The notes under the pieces: generated by a model
What the model was told of the DNA's origin: nothing
Seen by the model: only the letters and a program-made list of their open reading frames with translations
Database searches by the model: none
Source of the DNA: a virus
Virus record (IMG/VR): IMGVR_UViG_3300025229_000001
Strand: one strand, 5' to 3'
DNA: 64,000 bases
Shown: positions 36,847 to 53,714 of the stretch, piece by piece
Layout: every line of letters begins with the position of its first letter
Position numbering within the stretch: position 1 is the stretch's first letter
Position numbers and translations under genes: made by a program

Positions 36847-36896
36847 GCCCGAGCTTTGCACTCGGCTGCCGGCTTGCGTACCGGAGCTTTCCTCGT

Positions 36897-37020
36897 TGAG
36901 AGTGGCCGGCGCTGATCTCCGGCTTGCCACCACCATGCGCACGTCCCGTTAGGTCAGTGCCGGGAATCGAACCCGGTGGCATGTGATCAACATGCGCATC
37001 AGCCTGCGCATTCACTCTCA
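36897..37020 (-). ncRNA. C4-like phage antisense RNA, copy 1
   Basis: 8-bp closing stem TGAGAGTG/CACTCTCA; GCGC-AGGCTGAT-GCGC and GCCGG-AGATCAGCG-CCGGC hairpins; internal T-arm CCGGG-TTCGATT-CCCGG. Family name from memory of Rfam C4. Confidence 0.65.
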
Positions 37021-37092
37021 CGACTGGCGACTATCTGTCCTGGAGGATATTCGACGGGCTCCAGCGTCCGTCTAAATAATCGCCATGCGTGA
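37018..37092 (-). ncRNA. Long hairpin RNA module abutting the C4-like RNA
   Basis: TCACG/CGTGA plus TGGCGATTAT/ATAGTCGCCA stems. Confidence 0.45.
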
Positions 37093-37152
37093 AAGGGTTC
37101 CGCCGCCCGTATCAAACTGCTACGCCGACCGTAGCTGGCGGCGAAGCGGGGA

Positions 37153-37194
37153 TCATGGCTTGGGAAGCTTGTCCCTACGCGGACGAATGTCCAT
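37153..37194 (-). CDS. 13-aa micro-ORF MDIRPRRDKLPKP
   Basis: GAGGTG four nt before ATG; lies at the 5' end of the RNA array. Confidence 0.3.
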   Translation of the reverse strand: MDIRPRRDKLPKP

Positions 37195-37246
37195 GTCACA
37201 CCTCAATCAAGTTTGTCCATCGGATCACAGCACTGCCGCCCGTCGA

Positions 37247-37399
37247 TCAACTCTCGAGCGCACCACCAACAGCGAACGGCTCGAAGACATCGATCAGCCA
37301 CTCCGAATAGCCGGTAAGGGCGTGCGCGCATGCGAGGTGCCACGTTGCGGCCACCATCGGGCCAAAGGTGAGGATTGACTCCCAACCATCGAAAGTCAT
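37247..37399 (-). CDS. Small hypothetical protein (50 aa)
   Basis: ATGA overlap with GIY-YIG stop. Confidence 0.45.
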   Translation of the reverse strand: MTFDGWESILTFGPMVAATWHLACAHALTGYSEWLIDVFEPFAVGGALES

Positions 37400-38316
37400 G
37401 TCGCCTCTCGCTCCACGAATTCCCATCTGTATCCGTAAGCGCTTTTCCTGCGCCCGGCGCACACATGGCTCAGGTATGAAGACGTAGCCTTTGATATTCC
37501 CGAGTCTTTCAGCCAGATCACCGCATGCACCAGCGATTCAAACACCTTGCCGGTATCAACGATTCTGACGGGCTTTGCCCTTGCTGCGAATGATGCTGCA
37601 GCGGCTTGGGCCCTAGCTTCTGGTGATCGAGCGTTCATCGCCGCCGATAACTTCGCCCTGTGATCATCTGACAGGCGCTTGCCCATGCGGGCTGCGGACA
37701 ACTTAGCGCGCGTCTCTGCAGTCACAACCCGGTTCTTCAGCCGTTCAGACCTCCTGCGCCGCTCATCGGGAGATTGACCAAACAGTGTGCTCTTGGCGGA
37801 CAAGATTGCTTTGGTTTCGGCAGATAGAGGTTTCCCCCGCCTTGCTTGCGCGGACCTCGCTATCGCCTCGGTCGTCGGCGACTTTCCTTTGCGAATGGCA
37901 GATGCTTTCTCCCGCCACTCCGGAGTATCCCGGATCGCCCTCATAGCCGCCCTGGCAGCCGCGGACATCTTTCTGCCAGTCAAGGCAGCAGAAATCTTGT
38001 GGCATGTCGCCTCAGGGCGTTTCATGCCGAGATGACTGCCCGCAGTCTTGCAGATGTTGTAGCCCGGCACCAAGCAATCAATAGCTAGCTGCTCATACAT
38101 GAGCAAATCAGGCTTTCCGCAGATCAACAGGATCTCAAACCGCAACCCTGACTCGCCATGCTTTTTAAATGCCGATTGCAGATGCGGGTTATGGTGCGAC
38201 CCTACTCGAAGGTGATGAAGATGGACATGCCACCTTCTTCTGATATTAACCGCCGAGCCTACGTATTGCTTCCCAGACGCGCTGGTAATGGCATAAATGC
38301 CAGCAACGTTATTCAT
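37396..38316 (-). CDS. GIY-YIG homing endonuclease with NUMOD3 repeats and NUMOD1-like C-terminus
   Basis: GIY...YVGS..NIRRRW..H; repeated SxExRAKLS; YGYRWEF. Confidence 0.9.
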   Translation of the reverse strand: MNNVAGIYAITSASGKQYVGSAVNIRRRWHVHLHHLRVGSHHNPHLQSAFKKHGESGLRFEILLICGKPDLLMYEQLAIDCLVPGYNICKTAGSHLGMKRPEATCHKISAALTGRKMSAAARAAMRAIRDTPEWREKASAIRKGKSPTTEAIARSAQARRGKPLSAETKAILSAKSTLFGQSPDERRRRSERLKNRVVTAETRAKLSAARMGKRLSDDHRAKLSAAMNARSPEARAQAAAASFAARAKPVRIVDTGKVFESLVHAVIWLKDSGISKATSSYLSHVCAGRRKSAYGYRWEFVEREAT

Positions 38317-38410
38317 TCTTTACCTTGACTAGAGGTAGACCATTTGAGGGGCGCGGAAGATTGGCGGTCAAACCAACCGTGTCGGGAGCTACCCTATCCG
38401 CGCTCTGCAA

Positions 38411-38539
38411 TTATATCTGCTCCACGGCCTTCCTCAATTCATCCAGCCGGGCGATCATCGAAGCCCTCAGCGCCGGATCGATGTTTCGCATGCGCTCGAG
38501 ATCCAGTTCCAGGCTGTCGATTAGTTCTTGTGCGTTCAT
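38411..38539 (-). CDS. Small helical hypothetical protein (42 aa)
   Basis: Manual translation MNAQELIDSLELDLERMRNIDPALRASMIARLDELRKAVEQI. Confidence 0.45.
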   Translation of the reverse strand: MNAQELIDSLELDLERMRNIDPALRASMIARLDELRKAVEQI

Positions 38540-38557
38540 ATCGAATTCTCGCTGGCG

Positions 38558-38806
38558 TCAGTCGACCAGCTCGACCCTCATTGCAGAGGGAGTGGGGCAC
38601 CGGACGGCCGACACTGCACCGGCCCCAGCGGGGAGATCAAATAGGGATTCAGCACGTTTGCGTGCCTCGCTCCAGCCTTCGCGGACATGGAGCGTTCTCC
38701 GCTTCTCGGCGCGCTTCTCTGCGTTGGCCTGAGCCGCCTGCTTTTCCTCAAGGATGCGCTCGGGATTCCCGTACATTCGGGATTCGAGAGGAGAGGGAAA
38801 TCGCAT
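38558..38806 (-). CDS. Hypothetical protein, first late gene
   Basis: ORF right after the putative tR' terminator. Confidence 0.5.
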   Translation of the reverse strand: MRFPSPLESRMYGNPERILEEKQAAQANAEKRAEKRRTLHVREGWSEARKRAESLFDLPAGAGAVSAVRCPTPSAMRVELVD

Positions 38807-38822
38807 GACGGAGCCGGAAATG

Positions 38823-38858
38823 AAAAAGCCCCGCGCGGCTTTGGACCGGGCAGGGCTT
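38823..38858 (-). terminator. Putative tR'-like terminator
   Basis: AAGCCC...GGGCTT stem followed by U5 on minus strand. Confidence 0.55.
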
Positions 38859-38879
38859 CTGAAATTTATGTTGGCTCTA

Positions 38880-38906
38880 GACGTAACTCTAGGACCACGG
38901 TGTCAA
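38880..38906 (-). promoter_or_regulatory. Candidate late promoter pR'
   Basis: Exact TTGACA upstream of the terminator, but no well-spaced -10. Confidence 0.35.
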
Positions 38907-38921
38907 TACTGCCACAAACTT

Positions 38922-39323
38922 TTAGGGCTTGCAACAAATTTTGTATGCGCGATGCGACACAGCCTCTTTGTGTTGGTCGTCGCGTCCCCAGTACCGCTGG
39001 TCGCGCTCTTTCCGGGCTTGCTTGGCGGCATTTTGTGGGCCGTGGTAGTCGCGCGAATTCCCCAACTTGGTAGTCAGATAGACATTCCCCACCTTGTAGG
39101 GCCCGCTATCTTTTTCCCTAGCCATGCATAAGTCGTTAGCTCCACGCCCGCGCAAGTGAAAATGATCCTTCCAGATTCCCCACCATTCATCGAACGTCAT
39201 TTCGAAGGGTATTTCGCGTTCCTTGGCGCCATTGCGATGCGCTTGAAAGGCCTGCTTCGGGTTTCGTAAGCCCTTCTCTTTGCAGTACGCCCGTGCCTCG
39301 GCCAGCAAGATTTCGTCACTCAT
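38922..39323 (-). CDS. HNH-variant endonuclease (short form)
   Basis: REIPFEMTFDEWW.IW...RGRG...CMAR..D.GPY..GNV...T..GN; paralogous to the domain in 50031-51164. Confidence 0.65.
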   Translation of the reverse strand: MSDEILLAEARAYCKEKGLRNPKQAFQAHRNGAKEREIPFEMTFDEWWGIWKDHFHLRGRGANDLCMAREKDSGPYKVGNVYLTTKLGNSRDYHGPQNAAKQARKERDQRYWGRDDQHKEAVSHRAYKICCKP

Positions 39324-40048
39324 GCTGCCCACCCCAATTTCTTAGGCGTCGGCGGGACGGTTTCCAGCGTCGCCATGTCGATCAATGTGAAGTAGCCCTC
39401 ACGGAATACCGCGCCTGTATCGATGTGGTACACGTTGCCGAGCACGGCCGGGCGCTTGAGCGGTGTGTGGCCGACGATCAACGCACGAACATCAGGCACG
39501 CCTGAGACATCTTCCGACTGAATGCGATCGCGGCACCACAGCACATCTTGTGTGATTGCCTTGAGTTTATTGTTGCTGGTCACCCCAGCAAACCTAGCAA
39601 CCATCTCGCCCCACGATCCGCCAGACACATCGGCATGCACAATCCCAACAAGACCGTCAGCCGTTTCGACTTCAATGGCATAGGGCAGAGCGGCCAGCTC
39701 GATCGCGTACTCCTGCTGTTCGGGCATAGTCTTGCCGATCAGCCATGCGCCGCCGTTCGAGGCATAGTGGTATGGATCGCGGTTGCCTGGCGTGACGTAC
39801 CGAATCGCCATGTCCTCGTGATTCCCTTGGACGGCATGAAACCACGGCTTCGAGATCCACTCAAGCGCGAGCTCGGAGTCTGGCCCACGGTCCACCAAAT
39901 CGCCGACCGAGAACAACCTATCAGCCTTAGAGTCGAAGCCCATGCTGTCGAGCGTTGTTTGCAACAGCTTAAACATGCCGTGAATATCCCCTACGGCGAA
40001 GTCTCGGCCGATCATGTTCCGACCATAGTGGTGGACGAATGCGTTCAT
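39320..40048 (-). CDS. ninI: Ser/Thr protein phosphatase (lambda NinI-like)
   Basis: GDIHG, VGDLVDRG, GNHE, GHTP, IDTG motifs. Confidence 0.9.
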   Translation of the reverse strand: MNAFVHHYGRNMIGRDFAVGDIHGMFKLLQTTLDSMGFDSKADRLFSVGDLVDRGPDSELALEWISKPWFHAVQGNHEDMAIRYVTPGNRDPYHYASNGGAWLIGKTMPEQQEYAIELAALPYAIEVETADGLVGIVHADVSGGSWGEMVARFAGVTSNNKLKAITQDVLWCRDRIQSEDVSGVPDVRALIVGHTPLKRPAVLGNVYHIDTGAVFREGYFTLIDMATLETVPPTPKKLGWAA

Positions 40049-40452
40049 GCTGCGGCCTCCATCACCTTGATCAGCCTGCGCGCCGTGAACTTTGGCAGGA
40101 GCAACTCCTTCGATTCCTGATAGTACTGATGCGACTCTTCAGCACTCAGACGCGGATTTGAGAACACTGAGTATCCGGCTCGTTTATTGGCCATAGACAT
40201 CTGAATCGACGCTCTGTGCTGCCAGGTCGGCAGAGCATCGACACAGGCGTCCACAGTCTCGCCGTTCCGTTTAAATAGTTTCGCATCCACCGCCTCGGAT
40301 CTCTCCTGATCCGTCATGTGCTTCGCCGGGATCTCGTACTCACGGCACGTCGGCGAGCAGCGCGGGGCTCCAAGTGCAGGAGTGTACGAATCCTGCCAAC
40401 GGTGCCATTGGATCAAGAGTTCTTCAACTTGCTCGGATTGGTCTTGCGTCAT
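40045..40452 (-). CDS. Probable late antiterminator (Q-like)
   Basis: Position after nin genes and before late promoter; LLIQW.RW start, C-terminal helical DNA-binding-like segment. Confidence 0.55.
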   Translation of the reverse strand: MTQDQSEQVEELLIQWHRWQDSYTPALGAPRCSPTCREYEIPAKHMTDQERSEAVDAKLFKRNGETVDACVDALPTWQHRASIQMSMANKRAGYSVFSNPRLSAEESHQYYQESKELLLPKFTARRLIKVMEAAA

Positions 40453-40504
40453 TTAGAACCCCGCGCACTATCTGTTGTGGAAAACAACGCTTGTTAGCGT
40501 ATAT

Positions 40505-40533
40505 ATTGTACTTCAAATCAGTTCGCACTACAA
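40505..40533 (-). promoter_or_regulatory. Sigma70-type promoter upstream of Q-like gene
   Basis: TTGTAG-N17-TACAAT in an AT-rich gap. Confidence 0.55.
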
Positions 40534-40565
40534 ATTAACGGTACTGTCAATCACCCTTTTTGCGA

Positions 40566-40769
40566 TTATTCTTCGAGCCCTGTAACGCCGTACATGTACA
40601 TTGGCTCTGCCGGCTTCTCTACCTCTGTAACTGGCACACCCCGATACTTCCTCCGCTTCGTCGGCGCGACGTAGCGTGGACGGTGGAGGAGGTATAGGCC
40701 AACCAGACCACACATTGATACAACGCCAAGGGTGTAGCCAACCACTAGGCCGGGGACGAATGGGCTCAT
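40566..40769 (-). CDS. Small membrane protein
   Basis: N-terminal hydrophobic helix; ATGA overlap. Confidence 0.55.
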   Translation of the reverse strand: MSPFVPGLVVGYTLGVVSMCGLVGLYLLHRPRYVAPTKRRKYRGVPVTEVEKPAEPMYMYGVTGLEE

Positions 40770-40957
40770 GGATGCTCCCTTGATATGTTTTGTGCTGCCA
40801 GATCAATGACGTCCTGAAAGGTCGCATCACGCCAAACGGTGATCCACGGCTGCGACTCGGGAAGATGGCCGACCACGAATCGCCGCCGCCATTCGGATAC
40901 CTGCAACACCATTGTTTTGCGCCAACCGAGCCGATAGCGGGTGAGTCCGGTCAACAT
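40766..40957 (-). CDS. Hypothetical protein
   Basis: Coupled ORF in nin-type string. Confidence 0.55.
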   Translation of the reverse strand: MLTGLTRYRLGWRKTMVLQVSEWRRRFVVGHLPESQPWITVWRDATFQDVIDLAAQNISREHP

Positions 40958-41292
40958 GCTTTCTCCTTGCGTGCAACGATCGCGGCCGCGTTATAAAGAT
41001 CAATGGCACCCATTCCGAACTGCGCGAATAGCCCTTCGCACCGGCTCCGGAAAAACGCGTGAAACTCCCTAAGCGCCCGCACCTCTGCGATCAGGTCAAG
41101 GACTGCTTCGGGGTTCGCGGCGGCGATATACGATGCGTTCTGAGCGTATCCGTCATACATCCCCGACTTCGTGAGTGCCGTCACGATAGATCCGCCACGC
41201 CCAATCGGATGCACCCCGCCGTATGCGCTTGCTTCCCATGGCCCCGGCGTCGCCGCCTTCGCCAGCGCTTCAAGTTTGTCGATGTCGATCAT
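40951..41292 (-). CDS. Ead/Ea22-like protein
   Basis: DKLEALAKAATPGPW...NASYIAAANP. Confidence 0.8.
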   Translation of the reverse strand: MIDIDKLEALAKAATPGPWEASAYGGVHPIGRGGSIVTALTKSGMYDGYAQNASYIAAANPEAVLDLIAEVRALREFHAFFRSRCEGLFAQFGMGAIDLYNAAAIVARKEKAC

Positions 41293-41564
41293 TGCTGCAC
41301 CTTTGCGTCCAGCTCATGTTCCTTCTTCTCGCCGTAGTAGGCCGTCACTTTCTTGCCGCGCTTCAGTGCATCTTCGGCGACTTCTTCACTCCATCCGTCG
41401 ATCATGGTCGATTCCAGTGGCGACCATTTGATCTTCATGGCGATCGGTGTTTCGAGTTTTTCCCGAAGTGCCCGCACCTCAGCCTCCAGCGCCGCATAGT
41501 CCTCAAACTTCACAAAGCATCCATCATCACGCTCTGCGCACGACGTTCCGTATCGCTGAACCAT
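41289..41564 (-). CDS. Hypothetical protein
   Basis: AGGAG RBS before MVQRY; DGCFVKFEDY pattern. Confidence 0.6.
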   Translation of the reverse strand: MVQRYGTSCAERDDGCFVKFEDYAALEAEVRALREKLETPIAMKIKWSPLESTMIDGWSEEVAEDALKRGKKVTAYYGEKKEHELDAKVQQ

Positions 41565-41614
41565 GGTTGCTCCTATACCTTGCTGTTTGTTGTTAAGGGA
41601 TAGATGGGCGGGTT

Positions 41615-42196
41615 TCATGCTGCCTCCTTTTTGAGTTGACGGACTTGCTCTCTGTAGAACGCTTTCATTTCCAAGATCTCCGGCAAGGTGAGCTTTAACG
41701 GGAGATGAGGACCCTCGAGTCGCTCGACCTCTGCCAGGCCGATTTTCTTGATGAGATTGATGCGGTACAAAACCAGGTTTCCCGACAAATGCACGTTGCA
41801 CGGATCGCATTGTTTATTTACGTTGGCCGGATCGAAGCGACTGGCGGGGTTGGAGCCAACACTGCGGTAATGTCCGGCGTCCCATTGCCCTCGCCATGAC
41901 GCCGGCCGTCCACAAGAGATACACGGCAAGCCAGCGTCCCGCATCCGGATCCAAGCATTGAATGCCGCCTGCAATTCCTTCAGATGGGCGCCTCGCGTTT
42001 TCGCTTTCTCCAATGCCTCACGCAGCGACTTCCGCTCATCCCGTTTTGCGCGTGCTGCTTTTTGCTCTGCCAGCTTCCTCGCCCACTCGAGCGAGCAGGG
42101 CACGCTGCAGACCTTGCTCATACTCCGGATTGGCGTGTAGACGCGCTTGCACACGTGGCACTTCTTTGGCTTGAGCGACGGTTTGCCGAACGTCAT
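41615..42196 (-). CDS. ninG: NinG/Rap structure-specific endonuclease
   Basis: KKCHVC; CISCG...WDAGHYRS...NVNKQCDPCN..LSGN. Confidence 0.9.
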   Translation of the reverse strand: MTFGKPSLKPKKCHVCKRVYTPIRSMSKVCSVPCSLEWARKLAEQKAARAKRDERKSLREALEKAKTRGAHLKELQAAFNAWIRMRDAGLPCISCGRPASWRGQWDAGHYRSVGSNPASRFDPANVNKQCDPCNVHLSGNLVLYRINLIKKIGLAEVERLEGPHLPLKLTLPEILEMKAFYREQVRQLKKEAA

Positions 42197-42651
42197 GCAA
42201 ACTCCTTCGCCAGCGTCTCGTACCCATGCGCCGCCGTTTCCGACCACAGAACCTCGTTCTCGGCGCCAAAGGCAAACAGCCACTCAATAAAGGCGCTGGC
42301 CTCGGCCTTCCGGAATCCACGCGTCTGAACGCCAAGCTGCACGATGCCGGTCCCGTCGAGACTCGGCACCACGGATCCGCTGTTGTGTAGTGGGGTGCCT
42401 GCGACCTTCATATCGCGCACGAACTGATCGACCAACAGGCGCTTCATGTCTTCGCGATCCCACTGGCGGCCAAGCAATGGCACCTGTGCTGCGATGTCAC
42501 CGATCATCGCGTGATAGCGGGCTTCCTGATCGCGGGACTTCGGTGCGGGCTTCACCTCGCATACGAACCCGTCAGGCGCATTGATGACAGCACGGCTTGC
42601 CATCTGGCGGGCTGTCGCATGGACGAGACGGAAAAGCTGTCTGTCACTCAT
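42193..42651 (-). CDS. ninB: NinB recombination protein
   Basis: KSRDQEARYHAMIGDIA, EDMK, FIEWLFAFGAE. Confidence 0.88.
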   Translation of the reverse strand: MSDRQLFRLVHATARQMASRAVINAPDGFVCEVKPAPKSRDQEARYHAMIGDIAAQVPLLGRQWDREDMKRLLVDQFVRDMKVAGTPLHNSGSVVPSLDGTGIVQLGVQTRGFRKAEASAFIEWLFAFGAENEVLWSETAAHGYETLAKEFA

Positions 42652-42937
42652 CGCAGTCAATCCCCCGGTTCATGCTCTGCATCCATTCTTCGTCGGCTTT
42701 CCGATAAGCCTTCCGAATCGCCTCATCGGAATGCACGACTGCGGCGGCCACAAGAAAGATTGAAACGGGATATGTCACCATTGCCAACGCCCAGAGAGCC
42801 AGTTGCGCCGCCACATAAACGAACTCACCGACCGCTCGGCGGATCTCGTCCGGGAAGTCGCCACGGAAAGGACCGAGCGGGAGGCCGATTGCAGACTCAC
42901 GGAGTGCTGCGAGATATCTTTTCGTTTTATCGCTCAC
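42644..42937 (-). CDS. Hypothetical membrane protein
   Basis: Central hydrophobic segment; coupled ORF. Confidence 0.55.
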   Translation of the reverse strand: MSDKTKRYLAALRESAIGLPLGPFRGDFPDEIRRAVGEFVYVAAQLALWALAMVTYPVSIFLVAAAVVHSDEAIRKAYRKADEEWMQSMNRGIDCDE

Positions 42938-43628: not shown

Positions 43629-43939
43629 GCTTCCTCCGGGATCAGATCAGCCAAGTGGAAAACCTTGAGCCCCATCCTGTCGGCGGCCATTCGTTCAATC
43701 TTTGCGCCGTATGAATTGGTCCAGCCGGGCAATAAGCAAATAGCCGTGCAACCTCTCATCGCGAGAAGGTCAGCAGCGATGCAATCGAGCCAATCAGCGC
43801 TTTCATCCGGATTGATCTCGACGGGATTTACAACTTCCCAGCGAAGATTGCGCAGTCGTACAGCGACGCGATTGAACAACGGGAAATTGAGGCGGGGCAG
43901 CCCCGTCATCGGCCCGGAGATGTAGATTCGACCTTTCAT
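43625..43939 (-). CDS. DUF4406 / nucleoside deoxyribosyltransferase-like protein
   Basis: IYISGPMTG...NF..F...VVNP...LLPGW..S.GA..E. Confidence 0.85.
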   Translation of the reverse strand: MKGRIYISGPMTGLPRLNFPLFNRVAVRLRNLRWEVVNPVEINPDESADWLDCIAADLLAMRGCTAICLLPGWTNSYGAKIERMAADRMGLKVFHLADLIPEEA

Positions 43940-44118
43940 GCATGTTCCTTTTGATTGTTGTCGTTCTGTGCCGCGATCGCCCGGCGCTGTGCTTCCTGAA
44001 GCCGACGTGCGTACTTATCCGGCGAGCAAAACACGCCATCCTCAGCCATCCAGTCAAGCATCTGGCGGTGCGTTAGCCCGATGACGAGTTGGGTGGGCTC
44101 TTTGAGTTCAGTGCTCAT
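43936..44118 (-). CDS. Hypothetical protein (60 aa)
   Basis: Start moved to MSTELK for ATGA overlap. Confidence 0.5.
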   Translation of the reverse strand: MSTELKEPTQLVIGLTHRQMLDWMAEDGVFCSPDKYARRLQEAQRRAIAAQNDNNQKEHA

Positions 44119-44510
44119 ATGAAATCTCTCCGACGTGCCGTCCGGCAGCACAAGTAATCCAACGAGGTGTTCAGTTGTTTTGCGAGTTCGATTAATTGCC
44201 AATAGTGCGGAAGCTTCTGATCGGCTTCGTAATTCCAGATGCTCCGAGCGCTTACGCGTGCTTGCTGAGCCAATTCCTCTTGCGATAGCTTCAGTCGCTT
44301 GCGCAGCTTGGCGAGGCGCTTGCCAAAGGTCTCGCTAGACATGGGAGGCGCCGATTTGCGCTTGATCGTGCGATGGCATTCGACGCAATTCATGTTGCAC
44401 ACGAACCTCGGTGCGATATGTCCGCGCTTGCATGGGACGCCTGTTTCGTATGTGGATTTACCCGCAGCTTGAGCAGCTTTGCGAATATCAGCGGCGTTCG
44501 CGGCTCTCAT
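44115..44510 (-). CDS. Zn-ribbon plus XRE HTH protein
   Basis: PCKRGH...CVEC, then RLAKLRKRLKLSQEELA...WNYE. Confidence 0.75.
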   Translation of the reverse strand: MRAANAADIRKAAQAAGKSTYETGVPCKRGHIAPRFVCNMNCVECHRTIKRKSAPPMSSETFGKRLAKLRKRLKLSQEELAQQARVSARSIWNYEADQKLPHYWQLIELAKQLNTSLDYLCCRTARRRDFI

Positions 44511-44890
44511 CGACTGCCTCCATGGGCATGTCCCGATCGCACCATCGCGTTGATGGTCTGGACAAGCAGGGCATCTGCTTTCGGAAACCATGAGCCATCG
44601 TCGCGAAACAGGTTGTCTGAGATTCGCTCGTATTCTTCGTCCGAGACTCCAAGTGATTCGGCGGTCAGGTAAAAGAGTCGAGGCTTGGAGCCGTTCATCA
44701 GCCCGCGCTCCTGCTCTTGCACTTGCTCAAAGAGAACGCCAAGGTTCAGCATCAACTCAACACGAATGGATTCCTGGCCCCAATCCAACATCTGAGCTAG
44801 CGCCTGGATGGTCAGCGGGCCATTGGCTTTCAGCGCCTCGATCATTGCCTTGCGGCGCTTTTCTTTGTGCAGGTTGCCTTTGCGGTTCAT
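44507..44890 (-). CDS. Winged-HTH-like hypothetical protein
   Basis: EALKANGPLTIQALA; ATGA overlaps. Confidence 0.55.
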   Translation of the reverse strand: MNRKGNLHKEKRRKAMIEALKANGPLTIQALAQMLDWGQESIRVELMLNLGVLFEQVQEQERGLMNGSKPRLFYLTAESLGVSDEEYERISDNLFRDDGSWFPKADALLVQTINAMVRSGHAHGGSR

Positions 44891-45222
44891 GCGACCTCCC
44901 AATCGCTACCGAGCGAACGATATTCAACGGTCTTGCCAGCGCCCTTTGCCGCTGCAATGCCGTAATCCATGCCCTTGCTAATGCCCCGGTCGGTGTAGAC
45001 GACGGAGCCGTGAGCGACGGCGCGCCATGCGAGCCCAGCATCAATGCCGTGCTGGCGCTCCGCAGGGATGTCGTCGTTCAGCACACCCGGTTGGGTGTAA
45101 AGCAAGTGCGATGCAATCGGCGCTTCGCCGCGAAGGAGCGAATCACGCACGCACGCGCGGGCATATTCGATGTTCTTTTCAACGTCGCCCGCAAACGGGC
45201 TTTCCAGAATGACCAGTTTCAT
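44887..45222 (-). CDS. Second NDT-like/Rossmannoid small protein
   Basis: VILESPFAG...APIASHLLY...GISKGM pattern. Confidence 0.7.
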   Translation of the reverse strand: MKLVILESPFAGDVEKNIEYARACVRDSLLRGEAPIASHLLYTQPGVLNDDIPAERQHGIDAGLAWRAVAHGSVVYTDRGISKGMDYGIAAAKGAGKTVEYRSLGSDWEVA

Positions 45223-46379
45223 GCGACCTCCAATTGAAGCCCCGGCTGGCGCAGTCGGTCGCGCTGCAACGGCTCATAGTCTTTGTTAAGTTCCGTTCCG
45301 ATGAAGTGGCGGCCAAGGTTTTGCGCAACTTGGCCTGTCGTGCCGCTGCCGAAGAAGGGGTCGAAAACGATGTCGCCAACACGCGAACCAGCCAGTACAC
45401 ATGGCTCGACGAGAGCAGACGGGAACGTGGCGAAGTGCGCACCAGGATAAGCCTCGGTCGCTATCGTCCAGACGCTGCGACGATTCGCCGTGTCGAGATT
45501 CATGGCGACCTCAGTTACATCTCGCCCTTCGCGGTTAGCGCGGCCCGTGCCTTCCGGGCGGCTTTGTCCTTGACCGCGCATTGCATTACGCCCCGCCTTT
45601 TTTCCTTTCTCGCGTCCGCTGGGATGAAATGAACCGTGCGCGCCCGGGCCGGTATTCCAGCCATCAGGCATCTTGTATTTGTCGCGCGCCTTGAAATCCA
45701 TCGTTTCGAAGGATTTCAATTTCGTCTCGACGCTAACTGGCGTGCGGATAGCTGCTTGATCGTAGAAATATCGTTCGCTTTTGGAGAGCAGGAAAACGTA
45801 TTCGTGCGCCTTCGTGCACCGATCCTTGATCGACTCCGGCATCGGATTGGGCTTGTGCCAAATAATGTCTTGGCGCAGATACCAGCCGGCGTCCTGCAGC
45901 GCGAACGCGAGGCGCCACGGTTGGCCCATCAGATCCTTTGGCTTCAGCCCTTCGTCGCGGATTGTTCCCGTCTGTGTCGCTTTGCGCTGCGATGCCGCCA
46001 CTTGGCGGGCGCTCAGTGCCGACACACCGACGCCGGAGTACTCGCGCCCCTGGCTGCCCCATGAGCCAGCGTATGCGTCTCCCATGTTGACCCAAGCCGT
46101 ACCGTCTTCGGCGAGCAGCTGGCGGCAGAGTTCGAAGACGTCGACCATCGTCGCGATGAATTCTTTAAGCGTAGGCTCACTGCCGAGCTCATGCCCTTTA
46201 TCTTCGTGGCCTTCCGGCAGGTACGACCGCAAGCCCCAGTAGGGCGGCGACGTCACAATCGTCTGCACCTTCACGCCGTCAGCGATCATCGCGCGCATCG
46301 TTTCGCGGCAATCGCCGAAGTGGCAGTTGTCAAGCCACTTAGTACTACTACCTACGGTCAACTCAATTCTCTTCGTCAT
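45219..46379 (-). CDS. Amino-DNA methyltransferase (N4C/N6A, beta class)
   Basis: TSPPYW before DPFFGSGTT; IIWHKPNPMP, HFATFP. Confidence 0.92.
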   Translation of the reverse strand: MTKRIELTVGSSTKWLDNCHFGDCRETMRAMIADGVKVQTIVTSPPYWGLRSYLPEGHEDKGHELGSEPTLKEFIATMVDVFELCRQLLAEDGTAWVNMGDAYAGSWGSQGREYSGVGVSALSARQVAASQRKATQTGTIRDEGLKPKDLMGQPWRLAFALQDAGWYLRQDIIWHKPNPMPESIKDRCTKAHEYVFLLSKSERYFYDQAAIRTPVSVETKLKSFETMDFKARDKYKMPDGWNTGPGAHGSFHPSGREKGKKAGRNAMRGQGQSRPEGTGRANREGRDVTEVAMNLDTANRRSVWTIATEAYPGAHFATFPSALVEPCVLAGSRVGDIVFDPFFGSGTTGQVAQNLGRHFIGTELNKDYEPLQRDRLRQPGLQLEVA

Positions 46380-46390
46380 CTCGCCACCCC

Positions 46391-47955: not shown

Positions 47956-48953
47956 TGTTCTTTCCTGTTGAATTGGCCACCCGAGACTTTCGAGAATCCG
48001 TCGCGGCCAATTAGCCAATCAAAACCGCAGTGGGGCGGCACGTCCACGCTGTCAGCAACCCAAGGGAAGTACCGCTGCCAGAACGTCGGATCTTTTGGAC
48101 GGAATCCGAGGAAGTCGGTAATCGCGTCGGCGCGGTCCTTGCTGAATACTTCGTGACTGGCCTCTCCAAGGGAATCCCCAAGCGACTCGTTGAACGCGTT
48201 CATTACCGAAATCTGCTCAGCGGTATAGGCGGCCGGCGTGTAGTCATCCATCCATCCGCCATCGTTCAGCCAGGAGGCCGGGTAGGGGATGTAGGTCTTG
48301 TCGAGCCATTCAACCGAAGTCTTGGCCTTCTCCAAGCCGGACATGATGTCTGCAAGGAGTTGCTCGTTCGGTTTCAGCTTGGCAAGTGCCTTTTCAGCCG
48401 CGGTCTTCGATTTCTTTCTCGGATAGGCAGTCCAGAAGGAATCAAAGCGTTCGCGAAGCGAGCGCGAAAGATTGTCTTTTGGAGTTGTCTTTTGAGTTGT
48501 TTTTAAAGACGTATATTGTGGTTGTTGATTTGACAACCCCTCAATGGTTGATTTGACAACCCCTGAGTTGTCGTTTTGACAACCTTTCTGTTGTTGTTTC
48601 GACAACGGTTGCTGTTTCGACAACTGGGGTTGTTGATTTGACAACCCCCATTGCTTGTGATGCTTGTTGATGCTGAGTGTGTGGCCGTGGGTGCCGCCGC
48701 TACGATGGATCACTTTTGCGATTTCAAGTTCGCGCACGGTTCTGCTCAGGTTCGACTTGTCGAGACCAGTCATGGCAGACAACTGCGACAGCCCGATCTC
48801 GTCGGATGTCTTGTTGAAGCCGTACGTTTTACGAATGATCGTCATTACGACCGCCCATTGCCTTGCTGTTAGTCCTGCACAAATGAGTGCGTCCAGAAGC
48901 TCGTTAGCGAGCCTCGTATATCCGTTTTCGAGTTGCGGTGACGCTTCTTGCAC
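47952..48953 (-). CDS. O: Replication initiator (lambda O-like)
   Basis: ENGYTRLANELL...RKTYGFNK; FDSFWTAYPRK; internal iterons. Confidence 0.9.
   Translation of the reverse strand: MQEASPQLENGYTRLANELLDALICAGLTARQWAVVMTIIRKTYGFNKTSDEIGLSQLSAMTGLDKSNLSRTVRELEIAKVIHRSGGTHGHTLSINKHHKQWGLSNQQPQLSKQQPLSKQQQKGCQNDNSGVVKSTIEGLSNQQPQYTSLKTTQKTTPKDNLSRSLRERFDSFWTAYPRKKSKTAAEKALAKLKPNEQLLADIMSGLEKAKTSVEWLDKTYIPYPASWLNDGGWMDDYTPAAYTAEQISVMNAFNESLGDSLGEASHEVFSKDRADAITDFLGFRPKDPTFWQRYFPWVADSVDVPPHCGFDWLIGRDGFSKVSGGQFNRKEQ
48470..48648. repeat. Replication origin: six 17-bp iterons plus AT-rich flank
   Basis: GTTG(T/C)NG(A/T)TT(T/C)GACAAC-type units near 48521, 48545, 48567, 48590, 48608, 48629; T-rich tract at about 48470-48520. 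Confidence 0.88.
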
Positions 48954-48962
48954 ACTTCCGCC

Positions 48963-49202
48963 TCAAGATCTCGATTGCTTGGACAGGTACGCCCGCAACT
49001 TGCGAATAGCCTCACCAGCCATGCGCGTTGCCGGCGTGTCTTCCTGACACACAGTCATGCGATGCAGCAGCTCGGATAGCGCTGCGAGGTCCGGATCAGC
49101 GATCGGGAAGACGTCGACCGGTAGGCTCTTAACAAGCGAATCCAGCGCCCTGTTAATGCGCAACTCAGCACTGGAGACCCGACGAGTTCCGCGGGCGCTC
49201 AC
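48963..49202 (-). CDS. Hypothetical protein
   Basis: GTG start overlapping upstream stop. Confidence 0.55.
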   Translation of the reverse strand: MSARGTRRVSSAELRINRALDSLVKSLPVDVFPIADPDLAALSELLHRMTVCQEDTPATRMAGEAIRKLRAYLSKQSRS

Positions 49203-49369
49203 AGCGGCCTCCGATGCTTCGGCTTCTCAGTCATCCGCGCGAGCGAATCACACAGAAGGGTGACGAGTTGATGCTTCTCGGCCTTCTTGCGCGCATGTGC
49301 GATCTTCTGGGCCAGCTCGTCCTGGTCGCGCCACTTGGCCGGTTCCCGATTCAAACGGTCTCGCTTCAT
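49199..49369 (-). CDS. Hypothetical protein (56 aa)
   Basis: Start MKRDRL just after upstream stop. Confidence 0.55.
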   Translation of the reverse strand: MKRDRLNREPAKWRDQDELAQKIAHARKKAEKHQLVTLLCDSLARMTEKPKHRRPL

Positions 49370-49370
49370 C

Positions 49371-49544
49371 TCAACCCCTAAGACAAACAATCACTGCCAC
49401 CACCGGCAGCGCACACAGAGCAGCCAGGCAGACTCCGAACGTAACGGGCGATGCCATCAGACGGTCGATCAGCGGTTCGTTCTGACGGGCCCTGTATGCG
49501 TCCCATTGGGCGCGCTGTAATTGGTCTCGGTGGTGGAAAGTCAT
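49371..49544 (-). CDS. Small membrane protein (57 aa)
   Basis: Not in ORF track; MTFHHRDQ...FGVCLAALCALPVVAVIVCLRG; ATGA overlap with cII stop. Confidence 0.6.
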   Translation of the reverse strand: MTFHHRDQLQRAQWDAYRARQNEPLIDRLMASPVTFGVCLAALCALPVVAVIVCLRG

Positions 49545-49939
49545 GCTGCCCTCGATGAATTAAGCATTGCTGCCAGAGCGCCCTCAAGGGCAGCTACCTT
49601 TTCCTTCAGCGCGGCGTTCTCGGCTTTCGCGTCGACCACCGTTTCGTCTACGTCTCCCAACCCGATCTGCATCACCTCGTACTGGACTGGGGCGCGGTTT
49701 CCACAAAGGCGCATTAGTTTCAGGCGCTTGTGAGTCGGAAAGCCGACCGAACCCGACATGATTCGCGAGAAGTGCCCCTTGTCGATCGACAGTTGCTTAC
49801 CGATGTATTCGTTGGTAAGCGAACTGAGTTGGATGCACAGTCGCACCGCGTCGAGTTCGTCGTCACACATACTCAGCAACTCCTCCGACACGTTCTTAAG
49901 CTTCCTTGGCTCTCCGAGAGCCGTGATTTCGCGTTGCAT
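49541..49939 (-). CDS. cII: CII-like transcriptional regulator
   Basis: HTH (IGKQLSIDKGHFSRIMSG) plus C-terminal coiled coil; position after cro. Confidence 0.65.
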   Translation of the reverse strand: MQREITALGEPRKLKNVSEELLSMCDDELDAVRLCIQLSSLTNEYIGKQLSIDKGHFSRIMSGSVGFPTHKRLKLMRLCGNRAPVQYEVMQIGLGDVDETVVDAKAENAALKEKVAALEGALAAMLNSSRAA

Positions 49940-50030
49940 GGTCTTTTCCTTGAGGGTTCTTGCAGGCAGTTAAATTGAGTTGCAAGTCCTCAGGAAATCA
50001 AAATGGCGTCAAATCATCGCCATCCGTGAC

Positions 50031-51164
50031 CTACAACTCATGATTCACTGCTTCCGTTGTTCCGGTGAACTTCTTGTTCTCGCTCGTTGCGCCGAGCGGA
50101 GCGGTGTTCGTCGTATTTCTCAATCTATTTTTCAGTTCAAGTTGGCGTCTATTGCATTCTTCGATGTACGCGGACCTCGCTTCCTGCTCTGTTGCGAAAT
50201 AGCCAACGGTCTCGCGTCCGACCTTCACCTGGTAGGGCCGGGATTTGCACTTCTTCAAGTACGTCCATCCGCGACCACGGCCGAGGCCAAGGCCGGCCAA
50301 ATGGTCATACCCCTTCGCGGCCATCGTTACGGCTCGTTTAGCCGTGCGAATGCTAGCCGGAGTCTTGATATAGCTATCCTTCGAGTTCTGGCTCTGAGTG
50401 CAGATGTAGACATTCCCGACCGAGTACGATCCAACATCGCCGGTCCGCGCCATGACATAACCTTGTCCTCGACCGCGCTGCTCCCACTTGCCGGATTTCT
50501 GCCAGACCGCCCACCATTGCGGGAAGGTCAACGAGAACTCAATCCCTCGTTTGTCGCTGTTTCGCTTCTGGTGGACATAGGCCTTGGCAGCCTTGTTGGA
50601 CGTAAGCTGAACGCCTTTTCCAAGCAATGTTTCAAGGCCGGAATAAAGGCAGCCATAGACGCGCATGCAGCGTTCGTCACGGTTAGCCACGATTCGGAAT
50701 GTGCGGGCGGCCTTTTTAGCTTCCGCGCGAATCGACGAACCGCCATCAAATCTCGTCACGCCGCGTTTCGAGATGATCTGTCGGACACGCTCACGCGTGA
50801 CTCCGTGGATCTCGCCGATCTTTTCGAGACTCAAACCGGCCGAATAGGCATCGATCATTTGGCGGGCGCGGGATTCGGCGTCGGGCGATTGCATAGGGCC
50901 GCGCTTTCGCGTAGTCCCAGCCGCCTTGGAGGCCTTGTATATGGTCGCCGTGCACACGCCGTATTTGGCCGCAATCTGCTCAGTCGGCATTCCGGCGTTC
51001 CAATCGTCTGCGAACTTCTCGAAGGAGAACTTTTCGCGAGCCAGCGGACGACCGGCTTTACGCGCGCACTCAAAACAGCGCATGCGCCGACCATGACGAG
51101 GAACGGGCAGCGGTCCGCGACAATCAGCGCAGATTCCGGGCTCTGTAATGTTGAGGTAAGCCAT
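50031..51164 (-). CDS. Multidomain endonuclease: Zn ribbon, two HTH, HNH variant, AP2-like
   Basis: CADC..CFEC; EQIAAKYGV; EKIGEIHGVTRERVRQI; RGIEFSLTF.QWW...GNV...QN; VGYFATEQEARSAY. Confidence 0.75.
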   Translation of the reverse strand: MAYLNITEPGICADCRGPLPVPRHGRRMRCFECARKAGRPLAREKFSFEKFADDWNAGMPTEQIAAKYGVCTATIYKASKAAGTTRKRGPMQSPDAESRARQMIDAYSAGLSLEKIGEIHGVTRERVRQIISKRGVTRFDGGSSIRAEAKKAARTFRIVANRDERCMRVYGCLYSGLETLLGKGVQLTSNKAAKAYVHQKRNSDKRGIEFSLTFPQWWAVWQKSGKWEQRGRGQGYVMARTGDVGSYSVGNVYICTQSQNSKDSYIKTPASIRTAKRAVTMAAKGYDHLAGLGLGRGRGWTYLKKCKSRPYQVKVGRETVGYFATEQEARSAYIEECNRRQLELKNRLRNTTNTAPLGATSENKKFTGTTEAVNHEL

Positions 51165-51455
51165 TTACAACACCGACCGCATTTCTTTCGTCTTGCGGCT
51201 CGAACTACCGCCGGGGTTCGGCTGAGCGTCGTCGCGTGCTGCGATGGCATCTATACCGTTACCCCAGATGTCTGGGCGAAGCTCCGCGAGAGTGAAACGT
51301 GGATCAGCTTCGACAAGCTCTTTGCAGAGTTTGGCGCCAGGCTTACGTCCCGGTCGCGTGCAAAGATAGAGGTACTCGACCGACCTGCCGATCTTCGCGG
51401 CAAGCGCACGGCGCTCGTCAGGCTTGGTAGTGAGGAACCACGTTCGAAGATCCAT
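51165..51455 (-). CDS. cro: Cro-like repressor
   Basis: ALAAKIGRS.EYL...LRPDIW; divergent from cI. Confidence 0.85.
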   Translation of the reverse strand: MDLRTWFLTTKPDERRALAAKIGRSVEYLYLCTRPGRKPGAKLCKELVEADPRFTLAELRPDIWGNGIDAIAARDDAQPNPGGSSSRKTKEMRSVL

Positions 51456-51488
51456 TTAGTCAGCACCGAGAAATCATGTAGTGCTGCC

Positions 51489-51517
51489 AGCATAGATCAA
51501 AACGATGTGCGACTCAA
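51489..51517 (-). promoter_or_regulatory. pR promoter with operator in spacer
   Basis: TTGAGT-N17-TATGCT; ATC-N5-GAT palindromic core between the boxes, repeated near 51554. Confidence 0.7.
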
Positions 51518-51588
51518 GCTTTTTGCTTTGCTAAATCAAATCTTTTTGCACGTTGATCAAAATGATTGATCCAATCATCATTCGCACC

Positions 51589-52347
51589 ATGAAAACGGTG
51601 AAAGAGATCCGGTTAGAGAACGCGCGCGCGCTCGCACACGAGGGCCCGGCTGAGTTCGCGCGTCGAATAGACAGCAGCACTCAGCAGGTCAATCAGTTCA
51701 TGGGCCCGTCGCCAACTCGCAACATCGGTGACAAGCTGGCGCGCCGTATCGAGGCAGCGTTTGGCAAGCCAGAAGGGTGGCTTGATGTCGAGCACATAAC
51801 AGGCAGCACCGATGCATCAATCAGCGGAACAAGGTCGGCCGTACTCGAGAAATTGCTGCCAGAAGGAAGCGGTAACTTAGTCACATGGGAGACCCCGGAA
51901 GATCTCGAGCCCGACGACGACCGGGTGTGGATCGACCGTTATGACTATCGTTACTCAGCGGGGAATGGCGTGATTCAATGGGAAGTACGACAAAAAAAGG
52001 CGCTGCCGTTTGATATCGGTTTCTTCAAGGCCCTTGGTGTGCGCCCACAGGATTGCAGGTTGGCCCAGGTTCACGGTCGGAGCATGGAGCCGTATCTGTT
52101 CAATAAAGACATGATGATGATTTGCATGGCGAAGAACCGGGTGAAGGACGGTCTGATTTACGCCGTGACGTTTGAGGATGAACCGCTGGTGAAGCAGATC
52201 TTTAAGGAGCCGGAAGGCGCTCTGAGGCTGCATTCCTACAATCCAGAGTTTCCCGACAAGATCATCGCCGCGGACCAGCTGGAAGGGCTTCAGATCGCCG
52301 GAGAGGTTGTGTATCGATCCGGTTCAGGCTTGGCCGGCGGTAATTAA
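51589..52347 (+). CDS. cI: CI repressor (HTH plus S24 autopeptidase)
   Basis: AEFARRID...RNIGDKLARRIE; VHGRSMEP (Ser) and LVKQI (Lys). Confidence 0.93.
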   Translation: MKTVKEIRLENARALAHEGPAEFARRIDSSTQQVNQFMGPSPTRNIGDKLARRIEAAFGKPEGWLDVEHITGSTDASISGTRSAVLEKLLPEGSGNLVTWETPEDLEPDDDRVWIDRYDYRYSAGNGVIQWEVRQKKALPFDIGFFKALGVRPQDCRLAQVHGRSMEPYLFNKDMMMICMAKNRVKDGLIYAVTFEDEPLVKQIFKEPEGALRLHSYNPEFPDKIIAADQLEGLQIAGEVVYRSGSGLAGGN

Positions 52348-52420
52348 GACCGCTAAAAACCACAAATACGGGGTAGCCGATGGCGGTCGATCTGACTGAC
52401 CATCTTTGCAGCACTGAACG

Positions 52421-52447
52421 ACCCGGCCTCGGCCGGGTTTTTCATTT
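52421..52447 (+). terminator. cI terminator
   Basis: ACCCGGCC-TC-GGCCGGGT followed by T-tract. Confidence 0.75.
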
Positions 52448-52642
52448 CCGCCTCTGCTCGAAGCCCTCCCGCCATAACGTAGCACCGACCGACGTCAACA
52501 CGGCCAGGTCGTCTCCCCCGAATCTCTCCCAGTTCTGCGCAAGCCAGCCTGCGAAGCCGGCGCACGCGTAGTCAATCGGTACGTCTGCTCGGCCCTCGAC
52601 GTTCAATCGCTCGAAAACCGTTATCACGTCGTCTGCGGTCAT
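52442..52642 (-). CDS. Hypothetical protein in immunity region
   Basis: GAGG RBS; convergent with cI. Confidence 0.65.
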   Translation of the reverse strand: MTADDVITVFERLNVEGRADVPIDYACAGFAGWLAQNWERFGGDDLAVLTSVGATLWREGFEQRRK

Positions 52643-52692
52643 CTCAGCCTCCTAGTACCCACCTTCAGTCTAGACGGCGATCCCTCTATCTG

Positions 52693-52805
52693 AGCAAATC
52701 TTTATGATCTATTGAAGCTATGCAGGCGATAGAAATAATTGTTCGCTCCGAGCAAATCTTTTTGCGACATAGCGCTTGGCAAAGCAAATCAAATTGATCT
52801 ATGAT
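52693..52805 (+). promoter_or_regulatory. OL operators and pL promoter
   Basis: AGCAAATC-N5-GATCT at 52693 and 52783, degenerate copy at 52751; TTGGCA(52776)-N18-TATGAT(52800). Confidence 0.7.
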
Positions 52806-52851
52806 TCTCTCCATACCGCAACACAACGCAACGACGGAGAAGGGGATTGAA

Positions 52852-53058
52852 ATGAGCCCGAACAACCTTAATGCATTCCGCGCGATTGACGAAGTCTTCG
52901 ACGGAACTTTCATGTTGACGTTTGGCGGCCCGCTCGACGCACCGGAGATGATTCCGAACGGCTCGATGGTCGCGCATGAATGCCACACGATCCTCGCCGG
53001 TTCAGCACTTCGCTTGGGCGCGCACAACAAACCGTGCATATCGTTCCAGGTGCGCTAA
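52852..53058 (+). CDS. First pL gene, hypothetical (68 aa)
   Basis: Purine-rich RBS before MSPNNL; stop abuts the ribozyme. Confidence 0.6.
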   Translation: MSPNNLNAFRAIDEVFDGTFMLTFGGPLDAPEMIPNGSMVAHECHTILAGSALRLGAHNKPCISFQVR

Positions 53059-53113
53059 CAGGTCGAAACCGCTTCGGCGGTCTGAGCGTAAGGCGCTCAC
53101 TGACGAGACCGTG
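53059..53113 (+). ncRNA. Hammerhead ribozyme, type II
   Basis: GGTC-GAAA-CCGC(TTCG)GCGG-TC|TGAGCG(TAAGG)CGCTCA-CTGACGA-GACC: full core, G10.1-C11.1 pair, GUC cleavage after 53082. Confidence 0.92.
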
Positions 53114-53363
53114 AATTACCCGCAGTAGAAGCACCCGCCCCGGCAGAGCCGGATCGCGGAACGCACATTAACAATCGAAGTTTGCGGCCTCCCTCGGGAC
53201 TCGCCGCACGGTCTGATCTAGTCGACCGATACGCAGCACAGACCAACCGCGCTAGGCCGATGTATGGCTACCGGATAGAAGTCTGATTGAAGGCTGCGAG
53301 ACGATCAAAACCACGCGGCAGCTGGAGCCGGCTAGGCCGGGAGTTGTCAGCGTCGCGTGGATA

Positions 53364-53497
53364 GCAGTTCTCAGTGTTGGCGGTTGGTAACACGCATAGA
53401 CCATCGAGCCTTGCGAACCCCGCGTGTCTGGCGAATCCGGCGCGGGCGGCGGAAGAAGATGAACTAGCTAGGCCCAGCCGCCAACACTGAGAACTGC
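53364..53497 (+). repeat. 24-bp inverted repeat (RNase III-type stem)
   Basis: 53364-53387 pairs with 53474-53497 with one G-U. Confidence 0.85.
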
Positions 53498-53500
53498 AAG

Positions 53501-53623
53501 CGTTTTTAGTGGAAGGGTAGCGCAGTGGTGATGCGCGCTGAAGTGCACAGGTGGTGCGGGCGGCGATGTAGTCGTAACCGTTCCAAGCCGGAAATTCACC
53601 CCCGGCGCCTTCCCCTAAAGACG
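53501..53623 (+). ncRNA. C4-like RNA, copy 2 (divergent)
   Basis: Closing stem CGTTTTTAGTGGAAGG/CCTTCCCCTAAAGACG; GCGC-AGTGGTGAT-GCGC and GCCGG-AAATTCACCC-CCGGC hairpins. Confidence 0.6.
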
Positions 53624-53714
53624 TTTCGAGTCCCCTAGCCGCGGCCGATTCGCTGAGTCGGCGGCGGTTAGCGGGCTCTTGAGAGATTAGGACAACTACT
53701 CGCTGGAGACATTC

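Follow-up and report, generated by a model that had tools for sequence, protein, structure and literature searches.

A very common phage RNA family, found in no catalogue, occurs twice in one viral genome with different kissing loops and unrelated middles

A stretch of viral DNA 64,000 nucleotides long, from IMG/VR virus record IMGVR_UViG_3300025229_000001 and hereafter called the window, holds two small structured RNAs on opposite strands: copy 1 on the minus strand and copy 2 on the plus strand. Both are real, and both are members of one very common phage RNA family that was found in no catalogue. They share a scaffold in which the ends are joined in a closing stem, two GC-rich hairpins (H1 and H2) carry loops that are complementary to each other, and a middle segment of highly variable sequence lies between the hairpins. 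An original prediction, made by a model from the letters alone, had described two divergent RNAs with covarying hairpin loops, one conserved scaffold with exchangeable middles and a perfect tRNA T-arm in copy 1, and had called the pair C4-like after the antisense immunity RNAs of phages P1, P4 and N15. Every sequence feature that it listed is present at copy 1 and copy 2, and its bounds (36897-37020 and 53501-53623) were accurate to within about 7 nt; kinship with C4, as set out below, has not survived. At a probability of roughly 0.6, we take the two copies to be genes, or transcript-embedded domains, of one widespread tRNA-shaped phage RNA family that is processed by the host and whose middle is the effector.

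The scaffold, its two copies and its distribution

Read from the 5' end, the family fold begins with a closing stem of 6-12 bp, the linker AAU and the hairpin GCGCA-GGCUGA-UGCGC (H1, loop GGCUGA), passes into a hypervariable middle of 38-98 nt, and returns through AA and a second hairpin, GCCGG-AGAUCAGCA-CCGGC (H2), which abuts the closing stem. In an alignment of 50 sequences, from which the covariation counts were taken, nine of nine closing-stem pairs have changed on both sides, and the helix between the two loops is paired in 95.8% of cells with double-sided changes at three positions (GC/GU/UA/AU, CG/GC/UA and UA/CG). In 500 shuffles no measure came up to its observed value, and sliding the partner columns by 1-3 positions lowers the pairing to 30-46%. 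About seven kissing sequences are in use, with GCUGA:UCAGC in the majority and ACUGA:UCAGU, GGUGA:UCACC, UGCGA:UCGCA, GUCGA:UCGAC, GGCGA:UCGCC and UUGC:GCAA besides; the covariation first noticed between the two window copies, GCUGA:UCAGC against GGUGA:UCACC, holds across the family alignment. Loop 2 was left free in all pattern scans, and two scans freed loop 1 as well. The hairpin stems also covary among members retrieved only by a covariance model (R1) built from the same alignment: H1 reads GCACA/UGUGC in P1, GCGUA/UACGC at locus L052 and GAGCA/UGCUC at L186, with GCCCG/CGGGC as a further form, and H2 reads GUCGG/CCGAC in P1 or GCAGG/CCUGC (loci are cited by such L-numbers throughout).

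Within the window, R1 matches both copies over their full length (Table 1) and finds no third. Both are among its 50 training sequences, so that their match is partly by construction; independent support for membership comes from the fit of both to the scaffold pattern and from members outside the training set, which score alike (67.7 bits for P1, 78.6 for HK633 and 75.2 for L183). Single-sequence folding with RNAfold recovers the closed multibranch shape in each case (z = -2.1 for copy 1, -3.56 for copy 2). The claim of one scaffold common to the two is upheld. Copy 1 keeps the AA between middle and H2. Copy 2 departs from the family form in its linker, GUA, and in the single unpaired G (53607) that separates H2 from the closing stem, and its helix is extended by pairing of 53500-53509 with 53615-53624. 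The T-arm-like hairpin of copy 1 is likewise real, and three compensatory pairs preserve it in Burkholderia phage CSP3: the CSP3 homologue of copy 1, found by blastn, has the closing stem GAGGGUG/CACCCUC and the hairpin CCACG-UUCGAUU-CGUGG, both reached via compensatory changes.

Table 1. Positions of the two RNA copies, their parts and the conserved module behind copy 1 (window coordinates)
Feature	Position	Strand	Remarks
Copy 1, whole RNA	36894..37022	minus	R1, 81.1 bits, E 1e-20, full-length
Copy 1, closing stem 5' strand UGAGAGUG	37013..37020	minus	pairs with 36897-36904
Copy 1, linker AAU	37010-37012	minus	after closing-stem 5' strand
Copy 1, H1 GCGCA-GGCUGA-UGCGC	36994..37009	minus	D-arm-like position
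Copy 1, variable middle, 68 nt	36926..36993	minus	contains T-arm-like hairpin
Copy 1, T-arm-like hairpin CCGGG-UUCGAUU-CCCGG	36960-36976	minus	within middle
Copy 1, H2 GCCGG-AGAUCAGCG-CCGGC	36905..36923	minus	loop UCAGC pairs with H1 loop GCUGA
Copy 1, closing stem 3' strand CACUCUCA	36897..36904	minus	abuts H2 directly
Copy 2, whole RNA	53508..53617	plus	R1, 49.3 bits, E 1e-11, full-length
Copy 2, closing stem 5' strand GGAAGG	53511-53516 (with extension 53500..53516)	plus	extension 53500-53509
Copy 2, H1 GCGCA-GUGGUGA-UGCGC	53520..53536	plus	sequence and coordinates checked
Copy 2, variable middle, 48 nt	53537..53584	plus	unrelated to copy 1 middle
Copy 2, H2 GCCGG-AAAUUCACCC-CCGGC	53587..53606	plus	loop UCACC pairs with H1 loop GGUGA
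Copy 2, closing stem 3' strand CCUUCC	53608-53613 (with extension 53608..53624)	plus	extension 53615-53624
Conserved 3' module, AACGAGGAAAG with hairpins A and B	36848..36896	minus	behind copy 1, outside the span first predicted
3' module, hairpin A CCGG-UACGCAAG-CCGG	36869-36884	minus	
3' module, hairpin B, loop U-GCAAA-G	36848-36866	minus	three compensatory pairs in 11 sequences

The scaffold pattern, with the middle and loop 2 left free, occurs in at least 119 IMG/VR contigs, and blastn with one canonical member retrieves 252 GenBank phage records, P1 and HK633 among them, from phages of Klebsiella, Pseudomonas, Escherichia, Salmonella, Erwinia, Aeromonas, Xanthomonas, Burkholderia and Ralstonia; nearly all of these matches are unannotated or lie under a ‘hypothetical protein’. 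R1 gives 103 matches in 100 loci, has members also in P1, HK633 and CSP3, and matches at least 8 of 121 genomes of one bacterial family. Rfam 15 at its gathering thresholds reports only two int-alpA motifs in the window, both away from the RNAs, and E-value scans around both copies return chance fragments only, including a tRNA/tmRNA T-arm match on copy 1. At the family loci Rfam has no match at the RNA position in 14 loci, nor in three loci scanned at E <= 10, and literature searches by scaffold sequence and by description found no account of the family. In phage lambda, the Q-to-S interval (43800-45600) has no R1 match and only its flanking closing-stem sequences are family-like. The lambda tR'-to-S interval (L182, 44840-44950) shows the family-typical flanks cucuuuccguugugcugaau and cagcacaacccaaac without H1 and H2, and looks like a divergent or decayed relative.

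Resemblance to transfer RNA and to other small RNAs

The scaffold has the topology of a tRNA: one 5-bp hairpin stacks on the closing stem, the other 5-bp hairpin is set off by a short linker, and the two loops touch. H2 sits on the 3' strand of the closing stem as the T-arm sits on the acceptor, H1 follows a 3-nt linker like the D-arm, the 38-98 nt middle stands where a tRNA has its anticodon and variable arms, and the contact between D- and T-loops is replaced by 5-7 Watson-Crick pairs. Genomic placement points the same way. A tRNA gene on the same strand lies within 200 nt in 13 of 60 loci (ARAGORN), and in seven of the 60 (L052, L059, L062, L069, L072, L080 and L088) it starts 1-4 nt past the end of the RNA model, which is the spacing of a tRNA cluster. 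The P1 member (L161, AF234173, ~69497-69601, plus strand, 67.7 bits) lies in the ban operon, right behind tRNA-Asn and tRNA-Thr; the P1 open reading frames plp and upl are annotated antisense to it, and may be spurious because they oppose a well-scoring RNA member in such a position. The HK633 member lies between PR'/qut and the holin gene, a slot that holds tRNAs in other lambdoid phages. Furthermore, CCA or NCCA follows the closing stem directly in 23 of 104 distinct 3' flanks. Phage tRNA clusters carry other small stable RNAs, such as T4 species 1 and 2 and rnaC/rnaD, and the scaffold family resembles these in being placed in or beside tRNA clusters (1-4 nt away) and in its often CCA-like tails.

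On account of the tRNA-like topology, the spacing from tRNA genes and the CCA-like flanks, we infer release by RNase P and 3' trimming. As far as sequence can tell, excision by host tRNA enzymes, with the middle as effector, is likely. The loop-loop helix would form a tRNA-like elbow; host tRNA-processing enzymes would excise the RNA from long phage transcripts, RNase P acting at the 5' side and trimming enzymes at the 3' side; and the excised RNA would be metabolically stable. Its middle would be the working part, whether by antisense or guide action or by mimicry of a host RNA as a decoy. The late (packaging) operon would carry copy 1 in its leader and the leftward early operon copy 2 in its own, and the different kissing sequences of the two copies may keep each RNA folding on itself.

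The same tRNA-like topology and adjoining tRNA genes, together with a perfect T-arm inside copy 1, might suggest that these are simply decayed or intron-bearing tRNA genes. That account is barely credible. Neither ARAGORN nor the Rfam tRNA model detects a tRNA in copy 1 or copy 2, the family has no anticodon arm, and the H1 and H2 loops are kept as a Watson-Crick pair rather than as D- and T-loops. Strong purifying selection acts on the scaffold across hundreds of phages, and the T-arm-like hairpin of copy 1 lies in the middle, away from the closing stem, with counterparts so rare that they occur in only 3 of 102 middles.

Relationship to the C4, CI and CA RNAs, the identity first proposed, is contradicted already by reciprocal covariance-model tests on sequence. 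On that proposal the two copies would be antisense immunity RNAs processed by RNase P, acting through the pairing of their loops or middle with an antirepressor operon's leader; known members of the C4 family are reportedly matured by RNase P. The likeness is a general one. Both families comprise small phage RNAs within operons, with 5' and 3' ends joined in a closing stem, GC-rich hairpins inside, and a specificity-determining sequence on a conserved frame. In the C4 consensus, however, a 17-bp closing stem encloses two adjacent hairpins and a single-stranded UUGCCAA without a long middle, whereas the two copies have a closing stem of 6-8 bp, or an interrupted one, and a middle of 48 or 68 nt between the hairpins; and while the C4 loops pair with the a1/b1 and a2/b2 boxes of the mRNA, the loops here pair with each other. 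With membership set at 45 bits or more, the Rfam C4 model (RF01695) scores P1 c4 at 68.8 bits, P4 CI at 74.9 and N15 CA at 78.8, yet has no match in the window or anywhere else in the 68.5-kb virus record, even at E <= 10, and R1 conversely has no match at P1 c4, P4 CI or N15 CA. The model of the C4 target motif c4-a1b1 (RF03163) is equally silent in the window at E <= 10. No icd- or ant-like antirepressor gene is found among the annotated genes downstream of either copy, which are phrog_1365, an exonuclease-like gene, a 104-aa open reading frame and an HNH gene, and no site in the window is complementary to the RNAs over more than 12 nt. P1 holds both kinds of RNA at separate loci, c4 at 48337-48422 of AF234173 and the scaffold-family member 21 kb away. 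We regard a C4-type identity as extremely improbable.

YrlA, a bacterial Y RNA, has canonical T- and D-loops, whereas the loops of the scaffold family kiss through Watson-Crick pairs. Bacterial Y RNAs are noncoding, have a tRNA-like module, occur in some phages and are associated with a Ro60 orthologue (PMC4201824), whereas no protein family is consistently linked to the scaffold RNA.

The nearest Rfam topology, judged by eye, is that of STnc100 (RF02076), a prophage-borne small RNA of enterobacteria. By eye, its consensus has the closing stem UGGUG/CACCA, the linker AAU(C), a 5-bp hairpin and middle hairpins, and a CCGGG/CCCGG hairpin abuts the 3' strand of the closing stem, so that its topology and junction are those of the scaffold family. 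The frame of the consensus thus reads UGGUG-AAU-hairpin at one end and hairpin-CACCA at the other; the STnc100 locus of phage N15 is L194 (19863-20048, plus strand). STnc100 differs in its additional 5' and 3' parts, which include an intrinsic terminator, in its hairpin sequences and, by eye, in showing no clear 5-bp complementarity between loops. Its model finds no match among the scaffold family at E <= 10 while scoring the N15 control at 72.5 bits, and R1 has no match to N15 STnc100. The RNA is said to be related to PasD, with different seed regions on a shared fold, and the Pas/STnc100 RNAs are terminator-bearing Hfq small RNAs distinct from the scaffold family (bioRxiv 10.64898/2026.05.13.724894). 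From the likeness of the STnc100 frame, prophage RNAs that use this frame may form a wider class.

The variable middles as cargo

The prediction that the middles are exchangeable is upheld by the family at large. The 102 distinct middles fall into 83 clusters, the two in the window are unrelated, and middles differ even between phages with identical flanks. Some are conserved. The copy 2 middle recurs in L092, in L142 and in the prophage locus L184/L200, in each case with another closing stem and the standard GGCUGA loop 1, and across the four elements it shows one internal compensatory change, UGG/CCA to UGA/UCA; such conservation argues that the middles are selected and not filler. In L092 and L142 this middle is almost unchanged and is paired with standard GGCUGA/UCAGC loops and different closing stems, so that the loop change of copy 2 is a recent compensatory event on conserved cargo.

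Some cargos resemble host RNAs. In the sense orientation, the middle of L063 (4597-4658, plus strand) resembles E. coli 16S rRNA nt ~243-282, the helix 11 region, with 87.5% identity over 40 nt and differences that preserve the stem. Among the 102 middles, 3 have a T-arm-like hairpin where 0.125 would be expected, which marks such hairpins as a trait of some cargos and not of the family; as a family feature the hairpin was accordingly rejected. A search for the T-arm and downstream flank of copy 1 as a remnant of an attachment site (att) or as the 3' half of a host tRNA gave no match with up to 3 mismatches in 121 sampled genomes of one bacterial family. No neighbouring protein family is common to more than 13 of about 105 loci, and any partners are probably host factors, since no protein family is consistently encoded beside the RNA. 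A bolder version of the proposal, possible though we would not wager on it, is that the scaffold may be a natural frame for displaying RNA: a tRNA shape with a programmable Watson-Crick elbow, from which host tRNA enzymes would release and stabilise interchangeable cargos that act as decoys or guides against host RNAs or RNA-targeting defences. The cargos observed so far include the 16S helix-11 look-alike and the T-arm look-alikes.

Several observations weigh against a host-processed, tRNA-shaped RNA with an effector middle. The tails of the window copies are not CCA-like (ACGA in copy 1, CCUA in copy 2), and ARAGORN finds no tRNA gene in the window. The longest complementarity to either RNA within the window is 12 nt, which is at chance level, and a comparison with 150 sampled host-family genomes gave neither middle a target or a host look-alike beyond the T-arm-like hairpin, only marginal short matches; the same comparison contained one prophage homologue of copy 2. 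The patterns that retrieved most members fixed the H1 and H2 stems, so that variation in these stems is under-sampled. Kissing within one molecule and pairing between two would leave the same covariation, and phages with two copies often share identical loops, so different loops are not required. The loops differ between copies in L062 and in the window, and the notion that two copies in one phage need orthogonal loops was rejected, as L043, L110, L128 and L052 each hold two copies with the same loops. Lastly, G-U pairs (22) are only modestly more frequent than A-C pairs (10) at the core pairs; the strand given here is favoured by that excess and by the co-orientation of flanking genes, and leans chiefly on the latter.

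Genomic setting, rival readings and significance

A cI-like repressor gene (51553-52347, plus strand) separates two arms of the window. On the minus arm, copy 1 is preceded by an O-like gene and genes for DnaB, a methyltransferase, a NinI-like phosphatase and a GIY-YIG homing endonuclease, and is followed by phrog_1365, exonuclease-like and metallopeptidase-like genes, and terminase, portal, head and tail genes. On the plus arm, sites resembling a terminator (52420-52439) and a promoter (52776-52805) come before a gene-free, highly structured leader of about 900 nt that contains copy 2; beyond it lie an HNH gene and genes for a RecE-like protein and a methyltransferase. By annotation alone, the suggestion that one RNA lies in the early transcript and one in the late is reasonable, with copy 1 in the packaging and structural leader and copy 2 on the recombination side past the cI-like gene.

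This setting would suit a cis-acting leader element that stays in its transcript, as a mark for processing or stability or as a put- or nut-like modifier of polymerase, with a middle that is mostly spacer. The RNAs are always embedded in operons on the strand of their neighbours, and searches next to each copy turned up neither a promoter nor a terminator belonging to it. Each of the two divergent transcription units has one copy, as is likewise the case for putL and putR of HK022. The leaders are long, gene-free and highly structured, 53040-53730 folding far better than shuffles (z = -6.4) and 36760-37420 less strikingly so (z = -2.6), and the conserved module behind copy 1 has a hairpin loop of the boxB-like form GNRNA. 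We nonetheless consider a cis-acting role unlikely. A spacer would not stay within 38-98 nt and yet be swapped wholesale between close relatives, nor would one expect the copy 2 middle to be kept, with a compensatory pair, while the scaffold around it changes. Members also lie inside tRNA clusters, at tRNA-like spacing and far from promoters, and CCA-like tails are enriched.

Alternatively, the repeats could act as DNA: they might be the inverted ends of a recombination site or of some small mobile element, and insertion into palindromic targets would have given rise to the closing stem. The flanking inverted repeats do vary while the inner ends are conserved, the interior is swapped wholesale, and a homing endonuclease gene adjoins copy 1. 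Such an element is very improbable all the same: compensatory change between loops 60-100 nt apart has no rationale at the DNA level, the orientation is always that of the surrounding genes, G-U pairs exceed A-C pairs, no transposase or integrase is associated, and tRNA genes abut the RNA with the spacing of a tRNA cluster. The GIY-YIG/NUMOD3 endonuclease gene itself (37396-38316, minus strand) lies between a conserved 82-aa gene and copy 1, and looks like an insertion because the 82-aa homologue is far nearer the RNA in L006, L007, L010 and L012.

Other structures crowd the two copies. Immediately upstream of copy 1 is a 20-bp hairpin (37015-37095, minus strand) whose 3' strand is CGUGAGAG; this strand shares 6 nt with the 5' arm of the closing stem, which would set the two folds in competition. 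Ahead of copy 2, a near-perfect 24-bp inverted repeat (53364-53387/53474-53497, plus strand, one G-U) ends 2 nt before the extended stem begins at 53500, and a strong hairpin (53632-53675, plus strand) stands just past it. The 3' module of Table 1 occurs in nine IMG/VR contigs, one Burkholderia metagenome-assembled genome, CSP3 and Bordetella phage PHB04. Across the window, L001, L002, L004-L013 and L054 it comprises AACGAGGAAAG, the hairpin CCGG-UACNCAAN-CCGG, which does not vary, and another that covaries and has the boxB-like loop U-GNRNA-G; it usually ends in GCCUUCAUG. Other Burkholderiales phages have this module behind quite different upstream RNAs, and when bacterial contigs were scanned for it, 28 of 29 matches were chance ones in unrelated taxa. 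Elsewhere in the window, the int-alpA motifs (RF02996; 20236-20299, 44.7 bits, and 25096-25162, 42.0 bits, minus strand) lie within the structural module, a short way downstream of tail-like and capsid-like genes, without an adjoining integrase or alpA. At L066 an abiF RNA motif (RF03085, 55 bits; 1269-1305, plus strand) starts at the 3' end of a family member (1164-1268, a span that includes 2 flanking nt).

If the reading of these RNAs as a host-processed, tRNA-shaped family is true, hundreds of well-studied phages, P1, HK633 and many phages of Klebsiella, Pseudomonas and Burkholderia among them, hold an unannotated structured RNA. GenBank is at present blank at these sites or overlays them with doubtful reading frames such as plp and upl of P1; the family merits an Rfam entry, which would correct many annotations. 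The RNAs would constitute a third phage use of the tRNA-processing machinery of the host, beside tRNAs and C4-type RNAs, a natural counterpart of the tRNA scaffolds engineered for RNA expression, and a structural case in which the tRNA elbow is replaced by a covarying kissing helix. Their hypervariable middles are candidates for new RNA interactions between phage and host, and, should the scaffold indeed serve as a display frame, it would be a modular RNA arm of host takeover or counter-defence across phages of Proteobacteria.

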